A stretch of 64,000 nucleotides of DNA from Candidatus Aenigmatarchaeota archaeon (lineage in GTDB: Archaea > Aenigmatarchaeota > Aenigmatarchaeia > Aenigmatarchaeales > JACQIB01), in contig JACQIB010000001.1 in the NCBI GenBank assembly GCA_016198755.1, positions 1 through 64,000 on the forward strand, written 5' to 3'. The notes beneath the pieces were generated by a model. That model was not told the DNA's origin. It saw only the letters and a list, made by a program, of their open reading frames with translations, and did no database searches. The position numbers and the translations under genes were made by a program. Every line of letters begins with the position of its first letter. Position 1 is the first letter of the stretch. Positions 29,928 to 63,637 of the stretch are shown here, piece after piece.

Positions 29928-30733
29928 CCGCATAATCAACGCGTAACAGCGGACCGTTCGAGGACTGATGCGCTGAAAATGGACGGGAGTAAGTTATCTA
30001 CCGAGACCTCAGATACCAAAAGGTATAGCGTAGAGAGGCGCTCTGTTCGGGTAGAAGTTGGGGCGTAAGTTCCAATGGACCGTTCAGAGATGAGAATCCT
30101 ACCGATAGTAGCAGCAAAGAAGAGTTGGAATCTCTTCCGCCCGAAAGGCAAGGTTTTCCCGGCAACGATACTCGGCCGGGAGTAAGCCGATCCTAAGTCG
30201 CCCCCTAACGGACGGCGACGAAAGGGAATACGGTTAATATTCCGTAGCTGCAGCCATAGACGGGGTAACCCAAGCCCAGGCAAAATGTTTTTGGATATGT
30301 TCATGTAAGCGAAGCGTTTAAACCCTTGGAGTTCCGTCAAGGAGAGAAAAGGGTGAATGCGTTACAGGCTTCGGCGCAAGCTGGAGTTGAGCAAATTCCA
30401 AGAATCCATGAAAATTTGCCAGGGAGCGATTGGCTGCATTCGTACTCAGAACCGACGCAGGTGACCTTGTCTGAGAAGGACGTGGCGTGACGAGATACAC
30501 CAGGCTAGGGAACTCGGCAACACTGGCCGCGTACGTTCGCTATAAGCGGTGCCCATCTAGAGATAGGTGGGTCTCAGTGACCAGGGCCAAGCGACTGTTT
30601 AACAAAAACGTAGCCGGTTGCTATGCGGAAACGCTGTGTATAACCGGTGAGGCCTGCCCAGTGGCGGTGTGTCAAACTCGGTTTCAACCGAGCTAAGCCC
30701 CGCTAAACGGCGGCGGTAACTCTGACCGTCTTA

Positions 30734-30774
30734 ATCCAATCATGTAGAGAAATCTGTATGGTTGCATTGGGTAC
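30734..30774 (+). other. 23S intron 2 (41-nt hairpin, ~1927/1928)
   Basis: Removal restores GTCTTA|AGGTAGC; stem CAATCATGTAGA-GAAA-TCTGTATGGTTG. Confidence 0.85.
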
Positions 30775-30901
30775 AGGTAGCGTAATCCCTTGCCGATTAA
30801 ATGTCGGCCTGCATCAATGGCTTAACGACTTGGCCGCTGTCCCGGTCTGGAACTCGGCGAACTTGCTATTGTGGTGAAAAGGCCACAGACCCTCAGAGGG
30901 A

Positions 30902-31163
30902 ATCGGAAGAAGTGCTCTCGAAAATTTTAAAAAATAAAAATAGGTGATAAAAATGAGAGAAATCAAAAATTTAATAGAGACAAAGTCTTGCGATCCTATA
31001 ACAGCATTAAATGTTGCAACACAAATAGTGTCAGCAGGAGCAGCAGTTGCATCTGTATACTATGCATCTAAAAAGAAATAAAATAAATACCTACCAACAT
31101 AAGCGAGAAGGTATTATGATCATGAATAGTTAGAATAGAATTTGAGCATTTCTCCGACCTCAT
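30902..31163 (+). other. 23S intron 3 (262 nt, ~2054/2055) carrying a small ORF
   Basis: BHB GAGG-GA|A / CCTC-AT|A; removal restores CAGAGGGA|AGAGAAGACCCC. Confidence 0.88.
30953..31081 (+). CDS. Intron-encoded 42-aa hydrophobic peptide
   Basis: RBS AGGTGA, then MREIKNLIETKSCDPITALNVATQIVSAGAAVASVYYASKKK*. Confidence 0.65.
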   Translation: MREIKNLIETKSCDPITALNVATQIVSAGAAVASVYYASKKK

Positions 31164-31591
31164 AGAGAAGACCCCGTGGAGCTCTGCGGCAGCCTGTCGT
31201 TGCTGTGCGGTCGCGGTTTCATAGAGTAGTTGGGAGAGGTTATATCAGCGTTTTCGGGCGCTGGTTACTCGGCAATGTAACACCAACATCTCGTGACTGT
31301 ACTGCTAACCTCGACTCGGGGGACACCGATTGGTGGGCCGCTCGGCTGGGGCGGTACGCTCATGACAGGAGATCATGAGCGCGCAAAGTTATCCTCATCC
31401 CGGTCAGAAATCGGGAGTAGAGTGTAAACGCAAAAGGATGACTGACTGTGTTCCGCAAAGCAAGGAACGCAGACGCGAAAGCGTGCGTTAGCGATACACC
31501 GAGTGGTCTTTGATGGATTTCGGTGACTTCAGAAAAGCTACCCCGGGGATATGGGTTGGCGCAGAGAAGCGGGTTTTCTTGGAACAATTTA

Positions 31592-31649
31592 ATAAGGCAA
31601 AGCTATCTTGCCAATAGAAATATTGGTTTGCAAAGCAAGCTTTATGCTA
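31592..31649 (+). repeat. ~57-nt hairpin repeat, copy 1
   Basis: ATAAGGCAAAGCTATCTTGCCAATAGAAATATTGGTTTGCAAAGCAAGCTTTATGCTA. Confidence 0.9.
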
Positions 31650-31725
31650 CACATACGTGTAGTGATTTTTCTAGAAAATCCGTGATAACCATCATTCTTC
31701 CACACATGCTATGATCGTACCTTGT

Positions 31726-31782
31726 ATAAGGCAAGCTTACTTGCCAATAGAAATATTGGTTTGAAAAGCAAGCTTTATGCTA
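31726..31782 (+). repeat. ~57-nt hairpin repeat, copy 2
   Basis: ATAAGGCAAGCTTACTTGCCAATAGAAATATTGGTTTGAAAAGCAAGCTTTATGCTA. Confidence 0.9.
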
Positions 31783-31876
31783 ATCAGAGTTTGAGAGCAA
31801 TTACTTTTTGTGGAAGAACATCTCTGCGCCAAGCCACTTCATAACAGAGTCGTGGCGGGCGAGAGCTCCTATCGAC

Positions 31877-31938
31877 ATTTCGTCGAGTATAGGGTTTCAA
31901 TTTTAGAGTTAGCTATGCCAATATTCGCGGAACGAAAA
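31877..31938 (+). other. 23S intron 5 (62 nt, ~2483/2484, H89)
   Basis: Relaxed BHB ATCG-AC|A / CGAA-AA|C; removal restores TATCGAC|CCCGCGCG. Confidence 0.8.
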
Positions 31939-32031
31939 CCCGCGCGTTGCTACCTCGCTGTCGGCTCCCCCCCTCCTGGCTGTGCAGTAGCAGCCAAGGG
32001 TGCAGGTGTTCACTGATTAAAGGGGGACGTT

Positions 32032-32122
32032 AGAAAGTGCAGGATAATGCGTGGTGGGTAATTCTTCCTATTTTTGATTTGATTAGTTAGAATTATCTAC
32101 CCAAATCTTGGCTTTCCGTGAA
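32032..32122 (+). other. 23S intron 6 (91 nt, ~2576/2577)
   Basis: Relaxed BHB GACG-TT|A / CGTG-AA|A; stem GAAAG/CTTTC. Confidence 0.8.
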
Positions 32123-42625: not shown

Positions 42626-45600
42626 GTGAAAAAAATGGGATATGGATGGGGAAAGGATTTGAAAAAGCCCGAGTTTACAAAAGTCTCGGATGTTATTTGG
42701 GAGATTCCAACAAGCTTTAAGAAAGGAATGAACGTTCCAGCAAGAATATACGCAACAAAGCAGATTCTGGATCAGATGGACCTGATGGTTTTTGACCAGA
42801 TAACAAATGTAGCAACGCTTCCAGGAATTTTGAAATATGCTTACTGTATGCCGGATGGACACAGCGGCTACGGATTTCCAATAGGCGGAGTTGCAGCAAT
42901 GGATGCTGTTGAAGGTGTGATATCACCTGGAGGGATCGGATTTGATATCAACTGCCTCCACCCAGACTCAAAAATTTCTCTTTCCAATGGGACTTGGAAA
43001 AAGGTTTCTGATTTAGAGCATGAATGGGAAAATAAAAGAGTAAAGTTTTTTAATATAGAAAACAAAGCAGTTGAAAATGCCACACCCATTATGTTCATGA
43101 AACGTATGGAGGATAATAGTATTTTTGAAATAGTAACAGAAAGCGGAAGAAAAATAAATGTTACGGCAGAACACCCCATTCTAACTCAAAGAGGGTTTAT
43201 CAGAGCCGATAATCTGAAAGAAACAGATAATGTTTACACTCAGCCATTCAGCGGTGTAGAATACGAGAAGCCATCCGACGAGGTCATAGTTTCCTATGTT
43301 GACATAGAAAGAATTTTGGATGTCATAGGAATAACAAACTCTGGAAACGCAAGAGTTCAAATTTTAAATACACTTAAAAGAGTTGGTTTAAATGAAATAC
43401 GGTACAATTCCACGGCCCTGCCAGCTATTTTGAAAATAATGGGATTTGTTTTTGGAGATGGTTGCATATCTATATTGTCAAAAATAAAAAAAGGGATGAC
43501 AGCCTTTTATGGGAAAAAAGAAGATTTAGAAACTATAAAGGAAGACATAAAAAGTTTAGGGTTTAAAGCACAAAATATTTTTTCAAGGCAACGAAAACAT
43601 AAAATAGAAACTTATTATGGAACAAGCGAATTCGATTTTACAGAGCACTCTCTTTTAAAAAAATCCACAGGATTTGCAGCACTTCTCATAGCACTGGGTA
43701 CGCCACATGGAATTAAAACCTCTCAACCTTACAGGATTCCAAAATGGATAATGAAAGCACCTCTATGGCAGAAAAGACTATTTCTCGCAGCATTTTTTGG
43801 AGCAGAGCTTTCCTCTCCAAAAACTATTAATGCATATAATTTTTATATGCATCAGTTAAATATGAACAAACTAGAAATTCTAAAAGAAAATGGCGAAGAA
43901 TTTTTAAATGATATACGTCTACTGCTTTCTGAATTCTGTATAACATCTACATATCCCACTATAGTAGAAGGTAACCAGTATGTAGGCAAAAAAGGAAAAA
44001 CTATAGGTTTAAGAATTTGTATACATTCAAATCCGGACAATTTGGTCAAGCTCTATGAAAATGTGGGATACGAATATAATAAAGAAAAGTCAAATTTGGC
44101 CTGCCTTGCAGCAAATTACACACGCCTAAAGGAATCCATAAAATCACATAGGAGTGACATACGTACTTTGGCTCTTGAAATGTATAAATCAGGCGAAAGA
44201 CCGCGGGATATTAGAGCCGCTTTACTACAAGAAAACATATCAAAAAATTTTATAAACCATTCTATATGGCCTGATAGGAGCAATAATGTAAGGTTGCCTG
44301 CCGCATCAATTACTTTTGCTTTTGATGAATTCAAGAAAAATCTTATAGGAGATGGCATTGTTATCGACAAAATAAAAAAGATCGAACAACACCCCTATAA
44401 AGGATTTGTATATGATATTACAATTAACAATGAAAACCACAATTTTATAGCCAATAATATTATTTCTCACAATTGTGGAATGAGACTTGTTACTACAAAC
44501 CTTACTCTGAAGGATGTACAGCCTAAGCTGAAAGAACTTGTGGATAAGTTGTTCCAGAAGGTTCCAGCGGGAGTTGGTTCAGAAGGTTTTCTAAAGCTTA
44601 CAAAAGATGAGTTCAGGAAAGTTGTTGAGGAAGGGGCAGAGTGGTGCGTGAAAAAAGGATATGGATGGGAGGAAGATTTGCAGAGGACAGAGCTGTATGG
44701 GAGATGTAAGGATGCTGATGCAAAGAAAATCAGCCAGAAATCTGTGGATAGGGGGTATAGCCAGATAGGAACTTTAGGTTCTGGAAATCATTATTTGGAA
44801 ATACAGCATGTAAAACCAGAGAACATTATTGACAAGGCTACAGCAAAGGCATTCGGAATTTTCCCTGATCAGGTTGTAATAATGTTTCACTGCGGTTCCC
44901 GCGGGTTTGGCCATCAGGTTGCAACAGATTATCTTAACACTTTCCTTTCTGTAATGGAAAGCAAATATAAAATAAAGATTTTAGACAGGGAACTTGCATG
45001 TGCTCCGTTTAATTCTCCGGAAGGACAGGATTACTTTACTGCAATGAAATGCGGAATAAATATGAGCTTTGCAAATAGACAGGTTATTCTGCACAGGATT
45101 CGTGAAGTCTTTTCAGATGTTTTCAAACAGCCAGCAGATAAAATGGGTTTACAAATGGTTTATGATGTTGCCCACAACAGAGGTTCTTTGGAAAAGCATT
45201 TAGTGGATGGTAGCTGGAGGGAAGTTATTGTACACAGAAAGGGGGCTACTGCGTGCTTTGGTCCCAACAGAACTGAAGTGCCAAAAATCTGGCAATCCAC
45301 TGGTCAGCCCGTAATTATTGGTGGTTCAATGGAAACAGGTTCATACCTTTTAGTTGGTACAGATAAGGCAGCAGAAACATTTTTTTCAACTGCCCACGGA
45401 GCAGGCAGAACAATGAGCAGGACAAAAGCAAAGGGATTATGGAGAGGGGAACAACTTGTGAAAGATATGCAGAAGAAGGGAATTTACGTGCGCACAGTAT
45501 CTTTCCCAGGATTAGCTGAAGAGGCTGGTGGAGCTTACAAAGATATAGATTCTGTTATAAATGCTGCAGATTTGGCTGGTATTTCAAAGAAAGTTACAAA

Positions 45601-45631
45601 ACTTGTTCCAATAGGAAACGTAAAAGGTTAG
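42626..45631 (+). CDS. rtcB: RNA-splicing ligase RtcB containing an intein
   Basis: MPDGH, GFDIN|C, GTLGSGNHY, HCGSRG, YDVAHN, HRKGAT and STAHGAGR motifs. Confidence 0.96.
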   Translation: MKKMGYGWGKDLKKPEFTKVSDVIWEIPTSFKKGMNVPARIYATKQILDQMDLMVFDQITNVATLPGILKYAYCMPDGHSGYGFPIGGVAAMDAVEGVISPGGIGFDINCLHPDSKISLSNGTWKKVSDLEHEWENKRVKFFNIENKAVENATPIMFMKRMEDNSIFEIVTESGRKINVTAEHPILTQRGFIRADNLKETDNVYTQPFSGVEYEKPSDEVIVSYVDIERILDVIGITNSGNARVQILNTLKRVGLNEIRYNSTALPAILKIMGFVFGDGCISILSKIKKGMTAFYGKKEDLETIKEDIKSLGFKAQNIFSRQRKHKIETYYGTSEFDFTEHSLLKKSTGFAALLIALGTPHGIKTSQPYRIPKWIMKAPLWQKRLFLAAFFGAELSSPKTINAYNFYMHQLNMNKLEILKENGEEFLNDIRLLLSEFCITSTYPTIVEGNQYVGKKGKTIGLRICIHSNPDNLVKLYENVGYEYNKEKSNLACLAANYTRLKESIKSHRSDIRTLALEMYKSGERPRDIRAALLQENISKNFINHSIWPDRSNNVRLPAASITFAFDEFKKNLIGDGIVIDKIKKIEQHPYKGFVYDITINNENHNFIANNIISHNCGMRLVTTNLTLKDVQPKLKELVDKLFQKVPAGVGSEGFLKLTKDEFRKVVEEGAEWCVKKGYGWEEDLQRTELYGRCKDADAKKISQKSVDRGYSQIGTLGSGNHYLEIQHVKPENIIDKATAKAFGIFPDQVVIMFHCGSRGFGHQVATDYLNTFLSVMESKYKIKILDRELACAPFNSPEGQDYFTAMKCGINMSFANRQVILHRIREVFSDVFKQPADKMGLQMVYDVAHNRGSLEKHLVDGSWREVIVHRKGATACFGPNRTEVPKIWQSTGQPVIIGGSMETGSYLLVGTDKAAETFFSTAHGAGRTMSRTKAKGLWRGEQLVKDMQKKGIYVRTVSFPGLAEEAGGAYKDIDSVINAADLAGISKKVTKLVPIGNVKG
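42953..44473 (+). mobile_element. Intein (507 aa) with a LAGLIDADG endonuclease domain
   Basis: Starts CLHPD; block B TAEHP; GFVFGDG and FLAAFFGAE motifs; ends SHN followed by extein Cys. Confidence 0.93.
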
Positions 45632-47221: not shown

Positions 47222-48109
47222 ATGCAAAAAACTCCAGTTGTTTTAATAACAGGATATTTAGGTTCAGGAAAAACTACTTTACTGCGCAAAGTAATAGAAG
47301 AGATGAAAGGAAGGAAAATAGCAGTTTTAATGAACGAATTTGGTTCCATTGGGATAGACGGTAGGGTTTTGAAAGGGAAAGCCGTGGAAATGGTTGAGCT
47401 GAGCGGGGGTTGTGTTTGCTGCTCTTTAACAGGTGAGTTTGAGGCTGCAGTAAAGGAAATACTTGAGAAAATAAAGCCAGAGTATATTTTTGTTGAAACC
47501 ACTGGATTAGCAGAGCCCGATACAATAGTTGGTCTCTTGCAGGATACTATAGCTGATGTGCGCATAGACAGTATAATTTGCATAGCAGATGCAGATTCTC
47601 TCTTGCGTTTTCCAACCCTTGGACATACAGGACGGGTCCAGATTGAACTGGCTGATATTATTCTGCTGAACAAGATAGATTTAGTTCCTTCAGAAAAATT
47701 GCTGGAAATAGAGCATATGCTTAGGGAACTTAATCCAAAAGCAGAAATAACAAGAACGAACCACTGTTCAGTTTCCATTGTTTACCTATTGGGTTTGTAC
47801 ACCCCGAAAGAAATTGAAACCCATGAAAAAGAAGAGCATATACAAGAGGAGTTTTTTTCCTTCAAAAGCGCTGCAGTTTTCAATAGGGAAAAGTTTGAAA
47901 GCTTTTCTTCAGGCCTCCCAGAGAATATTTTCCGTGCAAAAGGGTTTATTGTTTTTCCAGAAGGTGGATTCCTGTTCAATTTTGTTGCAGGAAGGTTTGA
48001 ACTTGAGCCTTTCCCAACAAAGGCCACGGAGCTTGTTTTTATAGGCGGATGCGCCAATTCAGTTAAAGAAAGTCTGTTTGATAAACTGAAAGAATGTGAA
48101 GAAAAATGA
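47222..48109 (+). CDS. COG0523/CobW-family metallochaperone GTPase
   Basis: GYLGSGKTT, NEFG, GCVCC, ETTG, NKID and RAKG motifs. Confidence 0.92.
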   Translation: MQKTPVVLITGYLGSGKTTLLRKVIEEMKGRKIAVLMNEFGSIGIDGRVLKGKAVEMVELSGGCVCCSLTGEFEAAVKEILEKIKPEYIFVETTGLAEPDTIVGLLQDTIADVRIDSIICIADADSLLRFPTLGHTGRVQIELADIILLNKIDLVPSEKLLEIEHMLRELNPKAEITRTNHCSVSIVYLLGLYTPKEIETHEKEEHIQEEFFSFKSAAVFNREKFESFSSGLPENIFRAKGFIVFPEGGFLFNFVAGRFELEPFPTKATELVFIGGCANSVKESLFDKLKECEEK

Positions 48110-48540
48110 GCTACAAATTTCTAGAAGATATTGCAATAGCTGATGTGGCCTTTGAGGCCGACGGAAAAACAATTGAAAATATGTTTGAACAGGCTGGGCT
48201 TGCTTTGGAAAATACAATGGTTAAGGAACTGGAAACCGTAAAAACAACTGATAAGAGGAAAATAACAGCAGAGGGAAAGGATACGGAAACATTACTGCAC
48301 AATTTCTTGGAGGAACTGGTTTACATAAAGGACGCTGAACTTTTGCTTTTTTCCAAGTTTTCAGGCACAAAAATAGCTGAAAAAAATGGAAAGTGGTTCA
48401 TGGAAACCACTGGATTGGGCGAGCCTTTAAACCAAAAGAAACATGAGCTTTTAGTGGATGTAAAAGCAGTGAGCTGGCATAAGTTTTCTGTATCAAAGGT
48501 TAGAGGGGGCTTCAAATCAACAGTAATTCTGGATATTTAA
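48106..48540 (+). CDS. Archease
   Basis: ADVAF, VKAVSWH and C-terminal ILDI motifs. Confidence 0.9.
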   Translation: MSYKFLEDIAIADVAFEADGKTIENMFEQAGLALENTMVKELETVKTTDKRKITAEGKDTETLLHNFLEELVYIKDAELLLFSKFSGTKIAEKNGKWFMETTGLGEPLNQKKHELLVDVKAVSWHKFSVSKVRGGFKSTVILDI

Positions 48541-53603: not shown

Positions 53604-54641
53604 ATGGAGGAAATACAAAAAATACTGGCTGAAATAAAGCCATACATAGACAAGGAAGTTATATCACTTTTGGAAAAAACACAGCCGGAAATCCTGAAGA
53701 AAGCTGCATTTGAGTATTTTGCGCGCGGAGGGAAAAGATTTAGGCCAGCTTTAACGGCTTTATCATGCGAAGCTCTTGGAGGTATATGGCAGGATACAAT
53801 ACCAGCCGGAGCAGCAATAGAGATAATGCATGCTTTCGCCCTTATACATGACGATATAGAAGACTATTCAGAAATCCGCAGGGGAAAGCCAGCACTCCAT
53901 ATACAATATGGCCTTCCGCACGCGATAAACGCTGGAGATTATTTGCATATGAAAATTTTCGAGGCTCTTTTGCGCGGGCAAAAAGCATGGGGGAATGAAA
54001 AATTATTTTCAGTTCTGGAGCAGTTTGTAGAGCTTTTAATAATAACAGCGCAGGGGCAGGCAATGGAAATTGAAATGAGAGACAAGCCTTTAGAGGAGGC
54101 AACAATGGAATGGTATGAAAAGATGGCTGTTGCAAAAACAGGCTATTATTCCGGCGGGGGACCCTGTGCGATAGGTGCAACAATTGCTGGTGGAACAAGA
54201 GAGCAAATAGCAGCGCTGAAAAAGTTTGGGATTGCAATTGGAGTTGCTTTCCAGATACAGGATGATGTTCTTAACTTGACAATGAGCGAATCCGAAGAAA
54301 AATTGACTCCAGAAACAGGCGGGGGAGGTGTTGGAAAGGATTTTGCAGGTGATTTGGAGGAGGGAAAGAGGACTTTGATTTTGATTCACTGCTTACAAAA
54401 ATGTTCTGGGCATGAAAAGGAAAAATTCAGGGTTTTAATTGGCAAAAAAGGCCTGAAAACAGAACAAAAGAAAGAGTTAATTGCAATAATACAAAGCACA
54501 AAATCCATAGAGTTTGCAAAAGAATATGCAAGGGAAATGTTGCAGAATGCTTTACTCCAGCTTAAGGAAAAAATCCCTGAAACAGAAGGAAGAAAGAAAC
54601 TGGAAGCAACAGCGCAGTTTCTTATAGAGAGAAAATATTAG
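53604..54641 (+). CDS. idsA: Polyprenyl (geranylgeranyl) diphosphate synthase
   Basis: GGKRFRP, HDDIED..RRG, GQAME, KT and FQIQDD motifs. Confidence 0.92.
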   Translation: MEEIQKILAEIKPYIDKEVISLLEKTQPEILKKAAFEYFARGGKRFRPALTALSCEALGGIWQDTIPAGAAIEIMHAFALIHDDIEDYSEIRRGKPALHIQYGLPHAINAGDYLHMKIFEALLRGQKAWGNEKLFSVLEQFVELLIITAQGQAMEIEMRDKPLEEATMEWYEKMAVAKTGYYSGGGPCAIGATIAGGTREQIAALKKFGIAIGVAFQIQDDVLNLTMSESEEKLTPETGGGGVGKDFAGDLEEGKRTLILIHCLQKCSGHEKEKFRVLIGKKGLKTEQKKELIAIIQSTKSIEFAKEYAREMLQNALLQLKEKIPETEGRKKLEATAQFLIERKY

Positions 54642-54719: not shown

Positions 54720-56132
54720 ATGCCCAGCAAACCAGTTGGAATAGAAGCAATGTATGTTTACACTCCTCAATTTTGTGTAACTTCTGAAACATTAGCAAAC
54801 GCAAGGGGCGCAAAATTAACACATTTTACAGAAGGAATAGGTATAGGTTCCTTTTCATTCCCCCCACCAAATGAAGATCATGTAAGTATGGCAGCAACAG
54901 CAGCATTAAGGCTGATGAAAGAACAAGATATAGATCCAAGGGATATAGCAAGGATTGATTTGGCAACAGAAAGCAGCAGGGAGGGTTCAAGGGGAGCTCC
55001 TTCTGATGTTGTAGGAGCATTGGAACAGGCTTTTGGTACAAACAGCTTTCGCCACGTAGCTGGTGTAGAATATAAGTTTGCTTGCATTGGTGGCGTAGAA
55101 GCTCTTAGAAATTCATGTGCACTAGCTGCACCAGACTGGCTTCCAGAAGGGAGACATAATATTGTTATAGCAACAGATTTTGCAAGATATCATTTAAGGA
55201 GCGGTGAGGAGCCAACACAGGGAGCTGCAGCAGCAGCATTATTGATAGGCAGGAAACCAAGGCTTTTGGAGATTGTACCCCGTGCTTATGGTTCAGCAAT
55301 GAGATATGAACCCGGAGACTTCAGCAAGCCAGGCGGAAGATCCATAGCGAATGTAAATGGAGGGCTATCTGTAGGTTCCTATTTAAGTGAAATGAGAACA
55401 GCTTGGTCAGGTTTTATAGCTGCTGTTAAAGAAACAGGATTTATAGTACCTTCTTCAGGGATGTGCGTAAGCGACAGTATAGACAAAGGAATTTGGCATA
55501 ATCCTCACCTGAAACAAGTGCAATCTGCTCATGCTTCCCTACTAATGCATGAATGGATCGGCTTGCCTTCAAAGCAGGATATTTTCAGAAACTTAGGCAC
55601 CCCTCCAGAAAGAGGCGAAACTCCGGATCATGTATTTTATGCTAGTCAGCCCTATAAGGATTATAGAAAACGTTTCATGAAAGAGCCAGTGGTTGTAAGG
55701 GATTTCGATAAGAGGATAAAACCCTCTACTGTTGCTCCTTTCGATATAGGCAATTCTTATTCTGCATCAGTTTTTGTTGGTATTGACAGCCTTTTTGAAA
55801 CAGACCCAGAAGACTTGGCAGGCAAAACAGTTGTTTTGGCTGGTTATGGTAGCGGAAGCCATGCTCTGATACAGGCAACCAGAGTTCCAGAAGATTATAT
55901 GCCTGTAGCAAAAAGGCTTGATTTAATGAATAGGCTGAAAAGAAGAGAACACCTCAGCATAGGCGCATATGAAACATGGCATGATTTTCATGATGGCGTA
56001 CAAAGTGGTCTTGTGAAGCCAAGTGATATTAGCTTGCCAAGATCTTTCGCTAGTCCAACGTTCGTTCTCTCTTCAGTTGGTGCCATCAAAAGTCCGACAG
56101 AAGGACAGAGAACCTATGCTTTGGTAGCATAA
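54720..56132 (+). CDS. mvaS: HMG-CoA synthase (long, bacterial/haloarchaeal-like type)
   Basis: ATES, FACIGG, EPTQGA, HNP, GNSYSAS and GYGSG motifs. Confidence 0.88.
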   Translation: MPSKPVGIEAMYVYTPQFCVTSETLANARGAKLTHFTEGIGIGSFSFPPPNEDHVSMAATAALRLMKEQDIDPRDIARIDLATESSREGSRGAPSDVVGALEQAFGTNSFRHVAGVEYKFACIGGVEALRNSCALAAPDWLPEGRHNIVIATDFARYHLRSGEEPTQGAAAAALLIGRKPRLLEIVPRAYGSAMRYEPGDFSKPGGRSIANVNGGLSVGSYLSEMRTAWSGFIAAVKETGFIVPSSGMCVSDSIDKGIWHNPHLKQVQSAHASLLMHEWIGLPSKQDIFRNLGTPPERGETPDHVFYASQPYKDYRKRFMKEPVVVRDFDKRIKPSTVAPFDIGNSYSASVFVGIDSLFETDPEDLAGKTVVLAGYGSGSHALIQATRVPEDYMPVAKRLDLMNRLKRREHLSIGAYETWHDFHDGVQSGLVKPSDISLPRSFASPTFVLSSVGAIKSPTEGQRTYALVA

Positions 56133-56170: not shown

Positions 56171-56584
56171 ATGTTCAATCCATTCAGGCAGAGGATAATG
56201 GTTACTGCGGTTTTGAAAAATGGAAAAAAATTCCTTTTGCTGCACAGGAAGAAGCTGGGAATACAGGGAGGCAAGTGGCAGTTGCCTGAAGGAGGTCTGC
56301 ATTTTGCTGAAACCCCTGAGCAGGCTTTGATAAGAGAGATGAGAGAAGAAACAGGCCTTTCCCTGCGGGAAGCAAGGCTTTTAGGAGTTCATACTTCCAC
56401 AATGAGTGAGCTTGGAAAACCTCTATACCATGTAATAAGGCTGTTTTACTCCTGCAAAGCCGCAGGAAAAATAAGGCTAAGCAGGGACCACCCAGAGTTT
56501 ATCTGGGTTACGAGAGAGGGTATAAGAAAGCTTAAATTGTTTGAAGGACTAAGGTGGGGGGAAATAAAAAAGTTTTTGCGTTGA
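56171..56584 (+). CDS. NUDIX hydrolase
   Basis: GG.....ETPEQALIREMREETGL Nudix box. Confidence 0.88.
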   Translation: MFNPFRQRIMVTAVLKNGKKFLLLHRKKLGIQGGKWQLPEGGLHFAETPEQALIREMREETGLSLREARLLGVHTSTMSELGKPLYHVIRLFYSCKAAGKIRLSRDHPEFIWVTREGIRKLKLFEGLRWGEIKKFLR

Positions 56585-56589
56585 TTAAA

Positions 56590-57612
56590 ATGGTGTATAT
56601 TGGAACAGCAGAGGCAAGCCCTAACATGCCTTTTGTAAAATACTGGGGAAAAAGAAATGAAGCTCTAATTTTGCCAATGAACTCAAATATTTCAGCAACC
56701 TTCGACTCCAGTCTGGCAACACGCACAACTGTTTTCTTTTCTGAATCCTTGAAAGCCGATGAACTCTGGATAAACGGAAAGCAGTTTCCTCCTGAAAGTT
56801 TGGATAAAGCAATTCCCCAGCTAAACATAATCAGGGAGTTAGCTGGTATACAGATGTTTGCTAAAATATATTCTATAAGCAAAGTTCCTGTTGCAGCTGG
56901 TCTTTCAAGTTCTTCAGCAGGATTATGTGCTTTGGCTCTGGCGTCTGCTTCAGCGCTCGGGCTTAAACTGCCGGCAGAAGAGCTTTCAATTATCTGCAGG
57001 CGCGGCTCAGGCAGTTCCTGCCGCTCAATCTATGGGGGATTTGTAGAATGGGTAAGAGGGGACAAAACAGATGGTTCAGATTCTTATGGTGTACAGATAG
57101 CAGATGATAAACACTGGCCAGAACTCAGAATGCTTGCAGTTTCCATTGAGGAAACAGAAAAAAAGGTTAAAAGCAGGGCAGGAATGAAACAGACTGTTTT
57201 AACTTCCACACTGTATCAAAAACGATTACAGGATATTGGGAATACACTGGATTCTGTAAGGAATGCTATAAGGAACAAGAACTTCCAATCTTTAGCAGAA
57301 TTAACAATGAAAGAAAGCAATAACATGCACGCAGTTTGTATGGATACATGGCCTCCAATACTTTACCTGAATGACAATTCAAGGACTGTTATACAATCTA
57401 TACATGATTTCAACGAGGGCGGGCTGCGCGCAGCCTATACTTTTGATGCTGGCCCAAACCCCTATATTATAACAGAGGAAAAGAACCTAAAGTCTGTTCT
57501 GGAGCTCTTGAAAAAAATGAGTTTCATAAAACATATTTTTATCTCAAAGATAGGCGGAAACCCAAGAGTTCTGGAAGAACATTTGCTGAACGAAAAAGGG
57601 AAACCCGTATGA
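56590..57612 (+). CDS. mvaD: Diphospho-/phosphomevalonate decarboxylase
   Basis: NMPFVKYWGKR, AAGLSSS, GSGSSCRS, SRAGM and TFDAGPN motifs. Confidence 0.93.
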   Translation: MVYIGTAEASPNMPFVKYWGKRNEALILPMNSNISATFDSSLATRTTVFFSESLKADELWINGKQFPPESLDKAIPQLNIIRELAGIQMFAKIYSISKVPVAAGLSSSSAGLCALALASASALGLKLPAEELSIICRRGSGSSCRSIYGGFVEWVRGDKTDGSDSYGVQIADDKHWPELRMLAVSIEETEKKVKSRAGMKQTVLTSTLYQKRLQDIGNTLDSVRNAIRNKNFQSLAELTMKESNNMHAVCMDTWPPILYLNDNSRTVIQSIHDFNEGGLRAAYTFDAGPNPYIITEEKNLKSVLELLKKMSFIKHIFISKIGGNPRVLEEHLLNEKGKPV

Positions 57613-58061
57613 GCCTTGATAAATCAGTTCATTTGAGCGCGGGAGCTTTAGTTTTCTCAGGGAATAAAGTACTTGCAATAAAAAGGCTGAAAGAACCTTT
57701 CAAGGGAAACTGGTCTGTTGTTGGTGGGCATGTAGAAGAGAAAGAACTTCCTAATGAAGCTGCTGTCAGGGAAGTAAAAGAAGAAACAGGGCTTGATATA
57801 GAGCTTATAGACCCGTACATAGAGATTCCTGTAGAATTCTCAGAAGGCTTAAAGCGCCTGCCCCAGCCAATTCTTGTTTCTCTTCTCCCTGTAAAAGACC
57901 ATTACCACATCTCATTCACTTATGCTGCAAAAGCAAAAAGCACAGAGATAAAAATAAACAACATTGAAGGTCTTGTACAGTGGATAGATACGAACAATAA
58001 AGAAATTTCACCTCACCTGCGTTTAGCAATAGACACATACAAAAGAGTTTTGGGAGCATGA
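57609..58061 (+). CDS. NUDIX hydrolase
   Basis: GGHVE..E...EAAVREVKEETGL Nudix box. Confidence 0.88.
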   Translation: MSLDKSVHLSAGALVFSGNKVLAIKRLKEPFKGNWSVVGGHVEEKELPNEAAVREVKEETGLDIELIDPYIEIPVEFSEGLKRLPQPILVSLLPVKDHYHISFTYAAKAKSTEIKINNIEGLVQWIDTNNKEISPHLRLAIDTYKRVLGA

Positions 58062-58113
58062 AAATAAAAAATAAAGGTTTTTATTTGCTTGGAAAAACCA
58101 TGGAGGTTTTCCC

Positions 58114-58857
58114 ATGAAAGCAATAATTTTTGACCTTGAGGGGGTTTTATGCGATACGAGAGAGTGGATGAACCATTCTGTGCGCTCTGCTTTTTTTGAG
58201 CATGGTATAGAGCTCGAATTCTCTGATAAGGAGCTTTACAATATACGCGGCTGCGCAGGCTGCTTGAATTCCCCAGAATGGATACAGGTTCTTTTAGCAT
58301 TCAATGGAAAAAATTATATTAACAAAATATACGAACTGGACAAACCAGAGGAGTTTATAGTCTCTGTACTTGAAAAGGAAAAACCAGACAAGCTTTTAGC
58401 AGGTGAGATAAACAAAACCTACAGGGAAATTTACTATTCCCAGAAAAACCAGTTCCGCACTCCCCTCTCAGGAATTAAAGAAGTTCTTGAAAAGCTCAGG
58501 CCAAATTTTTCTTTTGGTATTTTCTCAAACACAAAGCACGATTCTATTCTAAAATTGTTGGATAACGCAGGCATAAGAGGATATTTTTCTATTGTTGTTG
58601 GGCAGGAGGATGTTTCAAAACAAAAACCAGATCCTGAAGGTTTGTTAAAGGCAATTGCAGAATTAAAATCCACACCGCAGGAAACTATCTATATTGGCGA
58701 TACAGCTTCAGATGTGCAGGCAGCGCGTGCAGCAGGCTGTGTTCCAATTGGTCTGCTGACTGGAATGGGAATTGAGCGCTGGCTGCGCGCAGCAGGTGCT
58801 GTCCATATTTTCCCAACATTGAAAGAATTTATCCAAAGTACGGCAATCGTACAATGA
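58114..58857 (+). CDS. HAD-superfamily phosphatase
   Basis: FDLEGVL, SN, KPDP and IGDTASD motifs. Confidence 0.88.
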   Translation: MKAIIFDLEGVLCDTREWMNHSVRSAFFEHGIELEFSDKELYNIRGCAGCLNSPEWIQVLLAFNGKNYINKIYELDKPEEFIVSVLEKEKPDKLLAGEINKTYREIYYSQKNQFRTPLSGIKEVLEKLRPNFSFGIFSNTKHDSILKLLDNAGIRGYFSIVVGQEDVSKQKPDPEGLLKAIAELKSTPQETIYIGDTASDVQAARAAGCVPIGLLTGMGIERWLRAAGAVHIFPTLKEFIQSTAIVQ

Positions 58858-58963
58858 ACGTCAATCTACTCTTCCGGAAGCATAGCCTTTATATACCTTT
58901 TCCCCGAGTTCTGTTTTTTAACTCCTATAAATCCTTTTCAACAATAGGAGTAAAGGGGATTAT

Positions 58964-60025
58964 TTGAGGCTATTGGAAACAGATGCAAAAGAACTCTTAT
59001 CAAAAGCTGGAATTTCTGTCCCAACAGGGAAAAGAGTGAGTACAGCAGCTGAGGCTGAAGCAGTAGCCAGAGAGATAGGAGAAGTTGTATTAAAGGTTCT
59101 GGGGAAGAAGGGAAGGGGAAAGGCAGGAATGATAAAGTTTGCAAACTCTCCTGCAGAAGCATTTGAGGCAGCAAAGGAGCTTTTAGAAAAATCAGATGAG
59201 GGTCTTATAATTGAGAAAAAGCTGGATATTCTGGAGGAGCTCTATGTTGCCTTTGCAGTTGATTTTTCAATAAGCAAGCCTGTTTTGATTGTTAGCAAGA
59301 AGGGAGGTGTGGAAATAGAAAACCAGGCGGATGTTAAAAAAATACCTATAAACATTCTGCGCGGGCTTACAGCAGAGCAGGCAGGCGAGGCTGTTGCCTA
59401 TCTAGGACACGCAGAGCTTTCACCCTTCCTCCAATTACTGTACAAGCAATTTAGGAAAATAGATTCGGAGCTTTTGGAAATAAATCCTTTAGCTATTACA
59501 GCCAATGGAGCTTATGTTGCTGATGCTCTAATTGAAATAAATGATGACAGCCTTTCCCGCCAACCTTTCAGGCAAGAAACGCCAACTGGAGGCATTGAAG
59601 CGGAGATGGCAGGTGCTGGCTGGTCCTACCATGATTTGGGGGGAAGTGTGGGATTAATCTGCTCTGGTGCAGGCTTGTCAATGGCTACACTTGATTTAAT
59701 CCAGATTTTCGGTGGAAAGCCGGCTAATTTTTTGGACATGGCACAAGTGGATGGAGACGGGATATATAGAGGATTGGAAATACTCTCGAAAAAACAAGGA
59801 GTCCGCTCAATTATTATCAGCCTTTTTGCAGGGTTGAACAGGTGCGACAGCATGGCAGAGGGTATTACAAGGTTTGTAAGGGAGAAGGGGCAGAAAGTGC
59901 CAATAATTGTAAGGATGGTTGGGAACAGAGAGGAGGAGGGTTTTGCAATACTGCGTTCTATTGGCTTAGAGCCCTATAAGGAACTGGAAGCAGCCGTAAA
60001 AAAGGCAGTTGAGGTGGCTGTGTAA
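58964..60025 (+). CDS. Succinyl-CoA-synthetase-like CoA ligase, beta (ATP-grasp) subunit, atypical
   Basis: GRGKAG, EINPL, GAGLSMATLD, PANFLD and RCD motifs. Confidence 0.85.
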   Translation: MRLLETDAKELLSKAGISVPTGKRVSTAAEAEAVAREIGEVVLKVLGKKGRGKAGMIKFANSPAEAFEAAKELLEKSDEGLIIEKKLDILEELYVAFAVDFSISKPVLIVSKKGGVEIENQADVKKIPINILRGLTAEQAGEAVAYLGHAELSPFLQLLYKQFRKIDSELLEINPLAITANGAYVADALIEINDDSLSRQPFRQETPTGGIEAEMAGAGWSYHDLGGSVGLICSGAGLSMATLDLIQIFGGKPANFLDMAQVDGDGIYRGLEILSKKQGVRSIIISLFAGLNRCDSMAEGITRFVREKGQKVPIIVRMVGNREEEGFAILRSIGLEPYKELEAAVKKAVEVAV

Positions 60026-60900
60026 TGGCAATTCTTGTAAATAGTGAAACAAAGGTTTGCGTGCAAGGTATAACAGGGAAAGCAGGAACCCTGCACACTG
60101 GCACAATGCTGGAATATGGAACAAAAATAGTTTCAGGTGTTAGGCCAGGAGCTGAAGGGGAGGAGGTTTTGGGAATACCTGTTTTTAACAGGGTCTCCAC
60201 TGCTGTGGAGGAAACCGGAGCAAACAGTTCCATAATTTTTGTGCCTGCAGCAATGGCTAAAGGTGCTGCACTAGAGGCAATAAATGCCGGAATAAAGCTT
60301 ATTGTAATAATACCTGAGCATGTCCCTTTGCATGATGAGCTTGAGATAATGCAGGCAGCTGAGGACTCGGGAATTGTTGTGGTTGGTCCAAACACTCCAG
60401 GGTTAATAGCCCCCTCACTTAAATGTAAAATTGGCTTTGTACCAAACAAATATTATATACCAGGTTCTGTTGGAGTAATGGCACGCTCAGGAACTTTAAC
60501 TTATGAGATTGTCTCCCGCCTTACTTTGGCTGGAATTGGGCAGAGCACTGCAATTGGAGTAGGTGGTGACCCTGTTATTGGGAGCAGGTTCCCTGACCTG
60601 ATTAAAAAATTTGAGGCAGATCCTGAAACAAAGGTTATTTTGCTTATAGGAGAAGTTGGTGGAACCCAAGAAGAGGAGGCTGCAGCTCTTGTTGCTGATG
60701 GAAAAATAAAAAAGCCTGTTGTAGCCTATATTGCAGGCTTCTCAGCTCCCCCAGGGAAAAGGCTTGGGCATGCAGGTGCGATAATTTCAGGCTCACAGGG
60801 GACCATGGAGTCCAAACTTAAATCCTTTCAAAAAGCAGGAATAGCTGTTGCCAAAACCCCTTCAGAAGTTTTGGATCTTGTGAAACAAAAATTGAGATGA
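60025..60900 (+). CDS. Succinyl-CoA-synthetase-like CoA ligase, alpha subunit
   Basis: QGITG, GPNTPG, RSGTLTYE, GVGGD and phospho-His GHAGA motifs. Confidence 0.9.
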   Translation: MAILVNSETKVCVQGITGKAGTLHTGTMLEYGTKIVSGVRPGAEGEEVLGIPVFNRVSTAVEETGANSSIIFVPAAMAKGAALEAINAGIKLIVIIPEHVPLHDELEIMQAAEDSGIVVVGPNTPGLIAPSLKCKIGFVPNKYYIPGSVGVMARSGTLTYEIVSRLTLAGIGQSTAIGVGGDPVIGSRFPDLIKKFEADPETKVILLIGEVGGTQEEEAAALVADGKIKKPVVAYIAGFSAPPGKRLGHAGAIISGSQGTMESKLKSFQKAGIAVAKTPSEVLDLVKQKLR

Positions 60901-60904
60901 TAAA

Positions 60905-62371
60905 ATGGTAGCAGGTATTGAAGATAGAAGAATATTGGAAGACGCGAGAAATGATGTTAGTGGTATAGTAACTAGTATTGCATCCCAATTGCAACATGGT
61001 ATGCATCTTTACAAGGCACCAGAGACTGTTAGAACTTTATACGGGCTTCCACAGACAGATGAAGCCAGTGAGAAAAAGTGCAGAGCCTATGCTGCTGCAG
61101 CTATCAGGAGATTTTTTGCAGAAAAGTATGGAGTGGATACGGTAGCTTTGGCAAGCACTGCCATAGTCCCGCCTCTGGTTAAAAAATCTAAAAAACTTGA
61201 AAATGGAACAACCGTAGATTTATGGGAGTCAAAAATGCCAAATTATATGGGAGGAGGAGTTGGAGGAAGACCTGTATCTGTTGTCGGGCCTGCAACATTA
61301 GAAATAGAAGTTTACGATAATATAAATGGAAAAGGAGAACCAATAAAAGAGAATGTCGTTTACATTCCGCTTGCACCAACAAGATTTGGTGTTGCTGAAG
61401 GTGTTAGCGCAGGATTAAAATATATTGCAGATTCTGGAAAACCAATAAAATTGAAAGTTGAAAGTATAAGCAGGGTAACGAGGTCCCCTGTATTTAAGTT
61501 TCCTACAGAAGCAAGTGCGGAAAGTGCTGCAAACAGTATTGGTGCGGGTGTTAGAAGTCATTTGGAAACAGAAGATAACGGAAACCTATTTGGAGAAATA
61601 AAGGGACTGGCAGACAAACTAATGAAAGGACATAACGGTTCTCTCGAAGGTCTGCACGCTGTTACTCTGGGTCCATACTTATGGGCAAATTTTGTCTATG
61701 AAATGAGCGGGGATAATTATGGGCACGAAGCTGTAACAGCCGTTACCAGAGAAGTGGTAAGAGAGGTGCTTCTAAAAAAATTGCCTCATGCAGAATTAAA
61801 AATGCTTGCAGGAGGGTTGGATGGTGACTTAAGACCTGCAACCAATCGATATGGTCGTATGGGAAACATCAGGGGAAGATGGGTTACTGCTTCAGCAGAG
61901 ATTACACCAGAAACCCTTAAAAAGAGGTTTGGAAATATAAGTCCGGAAGGATTAGCAGAGTTAAATAACTTAAAGCAGAAGGGAAACGAGATTCTAGGTA
62001 CGCATACTTTAGCTGGCATGGGGCCAGAGATTGTTGAAGGAGTGTTTTATGCGCTTGAGCCCCCAACCTCCCCATTCCTCTCCTCTACAATTAGTATGGA
62101 AACAAATGTTAAAGGTGATAGTTTAATACTAAATGCTATATTCCATAATATGGAAGTGGGCACAGTGCGGGAGGGTCCACTTTCAGATATAGCAAGCGAA
62201 TGCAGGGCTATTACAGGGAACATAGATGGGGCAGGAAACCCGATAGGCAGGAATGCGGTAAGAATGGCTGCGCGCATTGCTGCAGCAACTTTAGCTGGGG
62301 AGCTAAACCAATATGCACAAATGGCAACAGGAAGATTAGGAATGGAAGCCTATAGGAATGGAAAGCCATAG
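60905..62371 (+). CDS. Degenerate HMG-CoA reductase-like protein lacking the catalytic residues
   Basis: Colinear with class I HMGR (YIPLAPT, VTRSPVF, RGRWV.A, MEVGTV, AAATLAGEL), but the E/K/D/H motifs are altered. Confidence 0.7.
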   Translation: MVAGIEDRRILEDARNDVSGIVTSIASQLQHGMHLYKAPETVRTLYGLPQTDEASEKKCRAYAAAAIRRFFAEKYGVDTVALASTAIVPPLVKKSKKLENGTTVDLWESKMPNYMGGGVGGRPVSVVGPATLEIEVYDNINGKGEPIKENVVYIPLAPTRFGVAEGVSAGLKYIADSGKPIKLKVESISRVTRSPVFKFPTEASAESAANSIGAGVRSHLETEDNGNLFGEIKGLADKLMKGHNGSLEGLHAVTLGPYLWANFVYEMSGDNYGHEAVTAVTREVVREVLLKKLPHAELKMLAGGLDGDLRPATNRYGRMGNIRGRWVTASAEITPETLKKRFGNISPEGLAELNNLKQKGNEILGTHTLAGMGPEIVEGVFYALEPPTSPFLSSTISMETNVKGDSLILNAIFHNMEVGTVREGPLSDIASECRAITGNIDGAGNPIGRNAVRMAARIAAATLAGELNQYAQMATGRLGMEAYRNGKP

Positions 62372-62374
62372 AGA

Positions 62375-63637
62375 GTGAAAAGAATGGAACAAGAGCAGAT
62401 TAATGATTTGGTGGAGAAGCTGGAAAGCGGGGCCGTAAAGCTGCATGAGGTTGAAAACTTTACAGCAAATGATAGCAATGCAGCCACAATTGTACGCAGG
62501 GTTTATCTGGAAAAAAAACTTGGCTTCCCATTAAAGCACATTGGCTCAACTATAGTGGACTTTAATGATTCCATAAGCAGGAATATCGAGAATCCAATAG
62601 GAGCGGTGCAAATCCCGCTGGGGTATGCTGGAGATATGAAAATAAACGGAGACCATGTTTCTGGAACAGTCCCAATTTTAATGGCAACAACAGAAGGCAG
62701 GCTTGTTGCCGGTGTTGCAAGGGGAATAACTGTTGCCAATAGGGCTGGAGGTGTAAATGTTTCTGTTCTAAAAGATGGCATGACAAGGGATGTGCTTGTA
62801 AGGACAGGCGGTGCAAAAGAAAGCGCAACCCTTGCAAAATGGATAATGACAGAGGAAGGGTTTAACTTGCTGAAAGAGGGATTTTCAAAAACCACAAAGC
62901 ACGGTAAGCTGAAAGAAGTCAGGCCATATGTTATTGGAAGGGACACACATTTGAGGTTCAAGGCTGAAACGGGCGCTGCAATGGGCATGAATATGCTTAC
63001 AATAGCTGGGAAAGCCGCTGTGGATTATATTTTGCCTAAACTAAAGGAAAAAGGTATAAATGCTTTTGTTGTTTCAGAATCAGGCAATTTATGCTCAGAT
63101 AAAAAACCGGCTTTCATTAATGTTATTGAAGGGCGCGGAGTAACTCTAACAGCAGACATTGTTGTTCCACCTGAAGTTTTGAAGGAGAGGTTCAGGGTTT
63201 CAGCAGCTGCAATAGCAGATCTCTGCAAATCAAAAAACCTTATAGGATCAGCCCTTGCAGGTTCACATGGCTTTAACGCTCATTTTGCAAATATTTTGGC
63301 TTCCATGTTCATGGCGTTCGGGCAGGATGTTGCTCAGATTGTAGAAGGGTCACAGGGGGTAACTGATGCGGCTGTTCTTGAAGATGGCTCTCTCTATTTC
63401 TCTTGCTATCTGCCTGCGATAGAAGTTGGAACCTATGGAGGAGGAACTAAAAGGGAGACGCAAAAAGAGGCTTTGAAGATAATGGGACTCTATGGGGAGA
63501 ATGATCCTGAAGGTATAACAAGACTGAAACTGGCAGAAATTATTGGAGCAGCCTGCCTTATTGGAGATTTGAATCTGTTAGCAATTCAGGCTGCAGGAGA
63601 ACTTTCTAAAACCCATGGCTCAATCAAGAGGGGGTAA
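62375..63637 (+). CDS. hmgA: HMG-CoA reductase, class I
   Basis: ENPIG, MATTEG, AMGMNM, SGNLCSDKK, GQDVAQ, VGTYGGGT and C-terminal His. Confidence 0.95.
   Translation: MKRMEQEQINDLVEKLESGAVKLHEVENFTANDSNAATIVRRVYLEKKLGFPLKHIGSTIVDFNDSISRNIENPIGAVQIPLGYAGDMKINGDHVSGTVPILMATTEGRLVAGVARGITVANRAGGVNVSVLKDGMTRDVLVRTGGAKESATLAKWIMTEEGFNLLKEGFSKTTKHGKLKEVRPYVIGRDTHLRFKAETGAAMGMNMLTIAGKAAVDYILPKLKEKGINAFVVSESGNLCSDKKPAFINVIEGRGVTLTADIVVPPEVLKERFRVSAAAIADLCKSKNLIGSALAGSHGFNAHFANILASMFMAFGQDVAQIVEGSQGVTDAAVLEDGSLYFSCYLPAIEVGTYGGGTKRETQKEALKIMGLYGENDPEGITRLKLAEIIGAACLIGDLNLLAIQAAGELSKTHGSIKRG

Follow-up and report, generated by a model that had tools for sequence, protein, structure and literature searches.

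The stretch of DNA analyzed here (the window, 64,000 nucleotides; positions 1 to 64,000 of contig JACQIB010000001.1, forward strand, assembly GCA_016198755.1, Candidatus Aenigmatarchaeota archaeon) carries a mevalonate operon in which a two-subunit ligase of the succinyl-CoA synthetase (SCS) family is encoded together with the reductase of 3-hydroxy-3-methylglutaryl-CoA (HMGR). Sequence and gene context suggest that this enzyme may be an ADP-forming 3-hydroxy-3-methylglutarate (HMG)-CoA ligase that supplies HMGR via scavenging or salvage, an assignment to which we give an even chance. The reaction would be HMG + ATP + CoA -> HMG-CoA + ADP + Pi. The accepted entry into the mevalonate pathway leads from acetyl-CoA through acetoacetyl-CoA to HMG-CoA. 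To our knowledge, the only enzymatic route from free HMG to HMG-CoA is that of succinate-hydroxymethylglutarate CoA-transferase (EC 2.8.3.13, SUGCT), and we know of no EC number for an ATP-driven conversion. SUGCT is a family III CoA-transferase that needs succinyl-CoA and no ATP. An ATP-driven mevalonate entry from free HMG would, if true, be a new reaction. The genome holding the window (G000; 890,842 bp in six contigs, rated 89% complete) belongs to the Aenigmatarchaeota (DPANN), and the window is part of its contig C5. Open reading frames (ORFs) were called mechanically, domains were assigned by Pfam and NCBIfam, and neighbor genes were labeled via BLAST to Pfam-annotated seeds.

Both ligase genes lie on the forward strand. 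The beta subunit (58964..60025) has 353 aa with a TTG start and contains the Pfam domains ATP-grasp_2 and Ligase_CoA; it is about 20-35 aa shorter than its relatives. The TTG start is supported because solved SCS beta subunits align from residue 1 and because AGGAG/AGGGG stands immediately 5' of it. The alpha subunit (60025..60900, 291 aa) contains CoA_binding and Ligase_CoA domains and the GHAGA phosphohistidine loop. It is followed on the same strand by an HMGR-fold paralogue (60905..62371, 488 aa; Pfam HMG-CoA_red) and by a class I HMGR (62375..63637, 420 aa; PF00368, 340 bits; E = 4e-103 to PDB 6HR7). The preliminary description of this DNA had reported that beta and alpha run into an HMGR pair with gaps of at most 4 nt, and this packing was found again: beta and alpha overlap by 1 nt, alpha and the paralogue are separated by 4 nt, and the paralogue and HMGR by 3 nt.

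The ligase was compared with curated family models. The alpha subunit passed both SucD models (NF004230, 379.5 bits against a cut-off of 336; TIGR01019, 377.8 against 353.2) and is 67% identical to the alpha subunit of G024, a genome of the same order and the nearest one in which this set of genes recurs. The beta subunit stayed below the SucC cut-offs (NF001913, 244.7 bits against 370; TIGR01016, 239.3 against 375.55). It also failed the malate thiokinase MtkA model (NF010647, 186 bits against 604), and the models for ADP-forming acetyl-CoA synthetase (ACD) were failed by both subunits (beta NF045494, 17.8 bits against 1200; alpha TIGR02717, 86.6 against 567). The best solved matches of beta were SCS beta subunits (3UFX_B from Thermus, E = 7e-56; E. 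coli, 1e-41), and citrate-type structures matched more weakly (citryl-CoA synthetase 6HXQ_B, 1e-27; ATP-citrate lyase 6HXJ_A, 6e-13). The catalytic framework is kept, with GHAGA in alpha and, in our alignments, invariant K44, E172, N174 and P175 in beta. As in SucCD (EC 6.2.1.5; E. coli 1CQI/2SCU, Thermus 3UFX), there are the same two subunits with the same Pfam domains, and the ATP-grasp lysine and the glutamate of EINPL are retained, so that the same phospho-enzyme, acyl-phosphate and thioester chemistry is presumed. Unlike SucCD, the window beta falls under the SucC cut-offs, carries altered loops (GGG to AQ, FGGI-x to FAGLN, N264S) and belongs to a separate clade, and the ligase stands among mevalonate/HMG-CoA genes instead of tricarboxylic acid (TCA) cycle genes. 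Membership of the ligase in the SCS family, yet not as an ordinary SCS, is supported.

The two deviating loops had been pointed out in the preliminary description, and both are present in the translation (NFLDMAQV in ...PANFLDMAQVDGDG...; FAGLNRCD in ...IISLFAGLNRCDS...). Both differ from the loops of 49 canonical SCS beta controls. In these controls, for which GG[GTS] served as the selection criterion, the corresponding motifs are NFLD-x-GG[GTS] and FGGIxRCD. We take the GGG and FGGIxRCD loops to be the acid site of SCS beta; the GGG loop reportedly contacts succinate (work of Huang and Fraser, 2016). We refer to betas with NFLD-x-AQ and [FIV]AGLN[RD]C[DG] in place of NFLD-x-GGG and FGGIxRCD as AQ-type, a name coined here. 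A word-indexed search with beta scored 8000 candidates and retained 3880 of them as relatives (E <= 0.001); only three reach 51% identity or more, P0002 (81% identity), P0003 (70%) and P0004 (51%). The motifs NFLD-[MTL]-AQ and [FIV]AGLN[RD]C[DG] were present in all 41 aligned sequences (40 of the 120 listed matches and the G024 beta). Four further AQ-type betas scored 314-345 bits and were likewise under the SucC cut-offs.

A FastTree phylogeny of 157 betas placed 80 AQ rows in one group with a support of 100, apart from 76 rows of the genome scan. The result was the same with IQ-TREE (LG+C20+F+G4) on 56 rows, where 27 AQ rows were separated from 29 others by an SH-aLRT of 100. E. coli SucC was among the others, which answers the comparison with SucC that had been proposed for this ligase. 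The trees are mildly circular because the motif columns stayed in the alignment. Positions conserved in at least 85% of the AQ clade and in at most 10% of the 49 canonical betas were regarded as clade-specific. In E. coli SucC numbering these replacements are G52K, L250W, N264S, G291A, G292Q, R297G, T299Y, G320A, I322L and V323N; glycine stands at position 320 in 98% of the canonical controls. The AQ loop is one residue shorter than the canonical GGG loop. The replacements cluster in loops that also differ in a citrate-specific relative, the citrate-type beta of G000 (NYAEFSGDPP, GAIANFTRVD). Clade members with a source name carry the NCBI label succinate-CoA ligase, and this label is probably wrong. 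Such misannotation would be likely to inflate the apparent TCA capacity in reconstructions from metagenome-assembled genomes (MAGs), e.g. of Aminicenantes, Thermodesulfobacteriota and Micrarchaeota.

Within the phylum of the window, an SCS-beta-like gene was found in 21 of 371 genomes, and the AQ type only in G000 and G024. The other 19 were ruled out as AQ-type and are canonical or citryl-CoA-synthetase-like. One AQ beta ORF, at locus L198 (G591:C28, 4692-6479), has 595 aa, and its ATP-grasp domain does not start before residue 226, which reflects either an extended N-terminus or an artefact of an upstream start. A separate SCS-beta subfamily without NFLD was seen at ten loci (L059, L061, L071, L082, L083, L084, L088, L099, L103 and L104), mostly of Alphaproteobacteria and in the case of L084 of Desulfovibrionaceae. 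TctC/TctA tricarboxylate transporters are encoded at all ten of these loci and IclR regulators at four, and by its sequence context the subfamily may be yet another acid-CoA ligase.

Gene neighborhoods were evaluated for 84 AQ loci, four from the genome scan and 80 from a metagenome scan, and a locus was counted as informative if its flank measured at least 3 kb. In the archaeal subclade HMGR lies directly downstream in 6/6 informative loci, with the paralogue present as well in three of them; transporters and regulators were found in none. A further sample of 301 genomes of the Micrarchaeota phylum contained an AQ beta in five (G419, G438, G573, G590, G591). HMGR is nearby in all four informative genomes of this set. 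It is directly downstream in G419 and G573. In G591 it follows the ligase two ORFs further on, an M20 peptidase and a 297-aa ORF lying between alpha and HMGR, and in G438 it is divergently adjacent, upstream of the ligase. The G590 contig ends after alpha and is therefore uninformative for linkage. In total, HMGR or the paralogue was next to the ligase in 10/10 informative archaeal loci from two DPANN phyla. As a control, 76 non-AQ SCS-beta loci were analyzed, with HMGR in 0/76 and an HMG-CoA lyase (HMGL)-like gene in 2/76. The ligase-HMGR arrangement is not due to chance, and the linkage first described for a single locus is conserved.

The other AQ loci fall into two subclades. In the bacterial catabolic subclade an HMG-CoA enzyme was found in 18 of 38 informative loci, a TRAP, TAXI-TRAP, TTT or ABC transporter in 32/38 and an IclR or XRE-cupin regulator in 31/38. 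Four lyase neighbors reached 405-422 bits in the HMG-CoA lyase model (cut-off 246). A class II HMGR is linked to the ligase in three bacterial loci, and the reductase of L176 fits the degradative class II HMGR model. The stand-alone subclade, which includes sequences named Aminicenantes, has an HMG-CoA enzyme in one of 12 informative loci and neither transporters nor regulators. At this one locus (L126), thiolase and DUF35 genes accompany an HMG-CoA synthase of archaeal type. In the bacterial loci L149, L150 and L174, dehydratase genes of the AcnX (aconitase X) family adjoin AQ ligases. In the model for cis-3-hydroxy-L-proline dehydratase they scored 319 bits, below its cut-off of 700; since mevalonate-5-phosphate dehydratase is a member of the family too, 3-hydroxy-3-methyl-acid chemistry is conceivable.

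The genomes that carry the ligase were then compared for the upper mevalonate pathway. Across the 371 genomes of the window's phylum, HMGR was detected in 190 and Thiolase_N in 194. Among the seven archaeal carriers, thiolase was found in G438 and G573 and was undetected in G000, G024 (92% complete), G419, G590 and G591. HMG-CoA synthase is represented by a synthase-like gene in G000 and by divergent genes in G419, G438 (~540 aa) and G573. Neither enzyme was detected in three of the seven, namely G024, G590 and G591. HMG as the substrate fits 7/7 carriers, and acetoacetate only the four that keep HMG-CoA synthase. The preliminary description had named both acids, of which acetoacetate is thus the less likely one. 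Its wider proposal, a thiolase-independent mevalonate entry, is backed by comparative genomics in the form of HMGR linkage across two DPANN phyla. The strict rule of "thiolase or ligase, never both or neither" was rejected, since G438 and G573 hold both, and G008, G009, G020 and G037 (same order as the window's genome) hold neither. Long HMG-CoA synthase-like genes (470-550 aa) in genomes without Thiolase_N were also observed, in the window (54720-56132) and in G008, G009, G020, G037 and G419.

In G024 the cluster consists of geranylgeranyl diphosphate (GGPP) synthase, beta, alpha, paralogue, HMGR, a GHMP kinase, a decarboxylase and a second GHMP kinase. A gene of the FMN-dependent-dehydrogenase family near this cluster may encode a type 2 isopentenyl diphosphate (IPP) isomerase. 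Read from its gene content, the G024 cluster would represent a pathway that starts at HMG.

The whole of G000 was searched in addition. Thiolase_N had no match across this 89%-complete genome, and no source of acetoacetyl-CoA for the HMG-CoA synthase-like gene of the window was found in it. CoA_trans, CoA_transf_3 (the family of SUGCT-type genes) and AMP-binding domains gave no match in G000 or G024. In G000 there was also no match to POR_N (2-oxoacid:ferredoxin oxidoreductase) and, by tblastn, nothing that matched SdhA, SdhB, SucA or SucB of E. coli; E. coli GltA matched only a citryl-CoA lyase-like gene. A succinate or succinyl-CoA context is not visible in this genome. Within the window itself, no TCA gene or thiolase was present among 62 Pfam-scanned ORFs (50 in 1-52 kb and 12 in 51.6-63.6 kb), in agreement with the preliminary description. 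The genome check that had been suggested there, for thiolase and citryl-CoA lyase, gave no thiolase and a citryl-CoA lyase that accompanies a second SCS-like beta/alpha pair on contig C3 (~103750-106480; loci L002, L004 and L026). This pair has 389 and 299 aa and is under the SucCD cut-offs. The next gene encodes the lyase, a protein of 249 aa that scored 317 bits in the citryl-CoA lyase model (cut-off 212), and a HAD-like gene lies upstream. The C3 pair and the lyase are a split citrate-cleaving system, and probably the acetyl-CoA source of the cell.

What the analysis shows is the domain composition, the conservation of catalytic motifs, the placement in the clade, the linkage of the genes and the absence of others. 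The substrate, the direction of the reaction and the source of HMG are inferred. In the proposed mechanism, the ATP-grasp domain of beta would phosphorylate the conserved histidine of alpha, an acyl-phosphate would form and would then be attacked by CoA. HMG-CoA would then be the substrate of the class I HMGR, whose gene lies two genes downstream, and GHMP kinases and the decarboxylase would convert the product into isoprenoid units for archaeal lipids. Such a ligase would give a reduced symbiont an entry into the mevalonate pathway for which neither thiolase nor HMG-CoA synthase is required, and the HMG could be taken up from its host or environment. In genomes that retain the synthase, such as G000, the ligase might re-activate HMG from HMG-CoA hydrolysis; coexistence of ligase and synthase in G000 could thus be explained by HMG arising from the cell's own HMG-CoA. 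The bacterial members may perform a catabolic version, in which the acid is taken up, activated and cleaved by HMG-CoA lyase. If correct, this function would account for continued lipid synthesis in some DPANN symbionts that have lost the upper pathway, and would name a metabolite possibly taken from hosts. A ligase of this kind could also feed cheap HMG into engineered isoprenoid production.

Known relatives show how the family changes its substrate. [quoted passage not shown] The same parts describe SauCD as encoded with the enzyme that reduces its CoA-ester product, a likeness to the window ligase, and also with a transporter (PMC10413351). Its substrate is another one, and its reducing partner is an aldehyde dehydrogenase instead of HMGR (PMC10413351). 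Citryl-CoA synthetase (CcsAB/Ccl, 6HXQ) and ATP-citrate lyase belong to the same family, with specificity changed via the same two beta loops. Unlike these, the window beta has other loop sequences and no lyase partner, the lyase-linked pair being the one on C3. In the full-text literature, most subscription journals and supplements being outside its scope, no description of an ATP-dependent HMG-CoA ligase was found. DPANN mevalonate genes are discussed in PMC8975820 and treated in PMC11052028, and in the parts of both papers considered here the AQ ligase is not among them.

Several observations weigh against HMG as the substrate. Across the clade, the substrate is suggested by gene neighbors alone. 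An HMG-CoA enzyme is absent nearby in 20/38 informative bacterial loci and 11/12 stand-alone loci, and the archaeal operons encode no HMG transporter. The locus counts overstate independence because many metagenome loci are near-duplicates (L118/L121/L122, L176/L178, L149/L150, L181/L184, and L168 close to L169). L176 and L178 look mevalonate-catabolic, and activation of acetoacetate would be sensible there too. G000 keeps an HMG-CoA synthase-like gene in the ligase operon. Entry in this genome does not, therefore, obviously depend on the ligase, and an acetoacetate-activating role would explain the synthase-like gene better. HMGR occurs with a synthase-like gene but without thiolase or ligase in G008, G009, G020 and G037, and thus thiolase-less pathways exist without an AQ ligase. 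Finally, the gene absences rest on incomplete MAGs (G000 89%, G024 92%; completeness of the Micrarchaeota genomes not given).

Of the alternatives, the best placed is that the enzyme activates some different dicarboxylic or hydroxy acid, such as citramalate, itaconate, malate, glutarate or 3-methylglutarate, or is promiscuous, with only an indirect link to HMGR. We consider this unlikely. In its favor, the bacterial neighbors are generic acid-uptake systems and regulators, the AcnX-family dehydratases adjoin three of the ligases, the HMGL family also contains (R)-citramalyl-CoA lyase, and SCS enzymes are known for promiscuity. The high scores of the four lyase neighbors in the HMG-CoA lyase model speak against it, and class I HMGR (10/10 archaeal loci), class II HMGR (three bacterial loci) and the synthase and thiolase of L126 converge on HMG-CoA.

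A quite unlikely role, placed behind this one, is that of an ADP-forming acetoacetate-CoA ligase, which would convert scavenged acetoacetate to acetoacetyl-CoA in place of thiolase and leave the formation of HMG-CoA to HMG-CoA synthase. G000 and G419 do have a synthase-like gene and no thiolase, neither G000 nor G024 has a CoA-transferase or AMP-forming ligase, and bacterial loci with HMG-CoA lyase, alone or with a degradative HMGR, would leave acetoacetate in need of activation. Acetoacetyl-CoA would, however, be useless in G024, G590 and G591 because these carry the ligase without a detectable HMG-CoA synthase, and G438 and G573 already have thiolase. In the recurrent bacterial module of transporter, ligase and lyase, moreover, HMG-CoA could arise only if the acid that is taken up were the one converted to it. 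Furthermore, characterized family members use di- or tri-anionic acids, namely succinate, malate and citrate, and also sulfoacetate (PMC10413351).

Least likely, and in our view improbable, is a genuine divergent SCS that provides succinyl-CoA to an unrecognized CoA-transferase activating HMG or acetoacetate, or for some other need: the SucD equivalog score of alpha, the match of beta to Thermus SCS, the NCBI name and the known succinyl-CoA-dependent activation of HMG (EC 2.8.3.13) favor it, but beta and the four other tested clade members fail the SucC cut-offs, the GG[GTS] loop (49/49 controls, which were selected on it) is replaced throughout the clade, no class I/III CoA-transferase was found in G000, in G024 or among 169 Pfam-scanned neighbor ORFs, and G000 lacks succinate dehydrogenase, 2-oxoglutarate dehydrogenase and 2-oxoacid:ferredoxin oxidoreductase.

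An HMG-CoA ligase would act next to an unusual partner, the HMGR-fold paralogue. The preliminary description had treated the two downstream genes as an HMGR pair. Both do match HMG-CoA_red (paralogue E = 1.8e-11), but the upstream member is without the catalytic residues. A structural model of the paralogue (pLDDT 85.1, pTM 0.87) had human and Methanothermococcus HMGR as top Foldseek matches. Against class I HMGR, the Foldseek probability was 1.00 and the TM-score 0.6-0.77 over the whole length, with ~20% identity. The paralogue thus shares the fold of class I HMGR (human 1DQ8/1DQA, M. thermolithotrophicus 6HR7). Unlike class I HMGR, it has ENxIG, DKK, GQD, DAMGMN and the C-terminal His replaced family-wide. 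We take the catalytic residues of HMGR to be E559, K691, D767 and H866 (human numbering), and the paralogue has no equivalents of these four. In eight paralogue rows, other residues stand at every one of the positions of ENxIG, TTEG, DAMGMN, DKK, the N755 region, GQD, GGGT and the C-terminal His; among these rows, L127 is truncated, so that the last three of these regions are missing from it, and L028 is identical to P0124. The family instead has motifs of its own (NY[LM]GGG, P[TS]RxG, GDxYGHE, DGDLRP and LEPP). In contrast, the canonical motifs were intact in 7/7 true HMGR rows, and the window HMGR (62375-63637) retains ENPIG, DKK, GQD and KTH. A possible loss of the catalytic His in the true HMGR ("AGELSKTH" against "VGHLARAH" in 6HR7) was rejected, as KTH is present and H414 is invariant in alignment A4. 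The catalytic His by human numbering is the later one (KSH).

The paralogue is rare. A word-indexed search of 5.8 billion sequences gave four clusters including the window's own, and when 1.84 billion representatives were searched with a profile, 14 sequences reached E <= 1e-30. By crude patterns, 18 of the best 44 profile-search sequences were without any of DKK, GQD and [DA]AMG. One member (P0122) and the beta P0003, which is 70% identical to the window beta, each come from an NCBI contig of 6338 nt. The paralogue is conserved and therefore functional, and judged by its residues it is probably not a reductase; it illustrates clearly how an enzyme fold that has lost its catalytic residues can carry a conserved protein. 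Speculatively, it might serve to hold HMG-CoA, to pass it on or to choose between its stereoisomers. HMG is prochiral, and therefore the ligase or the paralogue would have to deliver the (S)-thioester used by HMGR. Prediction of a complex of HMGR (alignment A4) and the paralogue (A3) gave a score of 0.00, which is below the mark and reads neither way. An HMG-CoA ligase and a neofunctionalized HMGR-fold protein, as stereochemistry handler or channelling subunit, might together form an undescribed first mevalonate step, and the ligase clade might also stand behind an unrecognized bacterial HMG catabolic operon made up of transporter, ligase and HMG-CoA lyase. We put this compound proposal somewhat below an even chance.

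The ligase genes are part of a same-strand isoprenoid cluster, which opens with a short-chain or geranylgeranyl diphosphate synthase (53604..54641). This is followed by the HMG-CoA synthase-like gene of the same operon (54720..56132, 470 aa), a Nudix hydrolase (56171-56584), diphosphomevalonate decarboxylase (56554..57612; TIGR01240, 305.5 bits against a cut-off of 171.35), a second Nudix hydrolase (57609-58061), a HAD phosphatase (58114-58857), beta, alpha, the HMGR-like gene and HMGR, all on the forward strand. The Nudix and HAD genes, assigned by Pfam/NCBIfam, are interleaved with the pathway genes, and the Nudix pair and the HAD phosphatase (56171-58857) may be related to IPP/dimethylallyl diphosphate or may be metabolite-repair enzymes. 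Just past the window, three GHMP-family kinase genes follow on contig C5 (C5:63762-67198), then ORFs of 351 and 314 aa. The three kinases are presumed to be mevalonate and phosphomevalonate kinases. The 106-nt spacer 5' of the ligase (58858..58963, forward strand) was read directly from the letters. It contains a T6 run (58914-58919), a TATA-like TTTATATA (58888-58895) and TATAAA (58926-58931). By these elements the spacer is possibly an internal terminator and promoter, in which case ligase, paralogue, HMGR and kinases would form their own transcription unit. Lipid genes were identified by Pfam elsewhere in the window, namely those for CDP-archaeol synthase, for phosphatidylserine decarboxylase and for two CDP-alcohol phosphatidyltransferases, and the cell therefore seems to synthesize lipids of its own.

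Some further features of the window were observed. An archaeal large-subunit rRNA gene (27827-32081) has 4255 nt compared with 2987 nt in the model, with ~1.27 kb of insertions that may be introns. The RtcB tRNA-splicing ligase gene (42626-45631, 1001 aa) contains an intein (Intein_splicing, residues 117-616), and an archease is encoded near it at 48106-48540. On the reverse strand, a 1563-aa ORF (3884-8575) had no Pfam family at E <= 1e-8.

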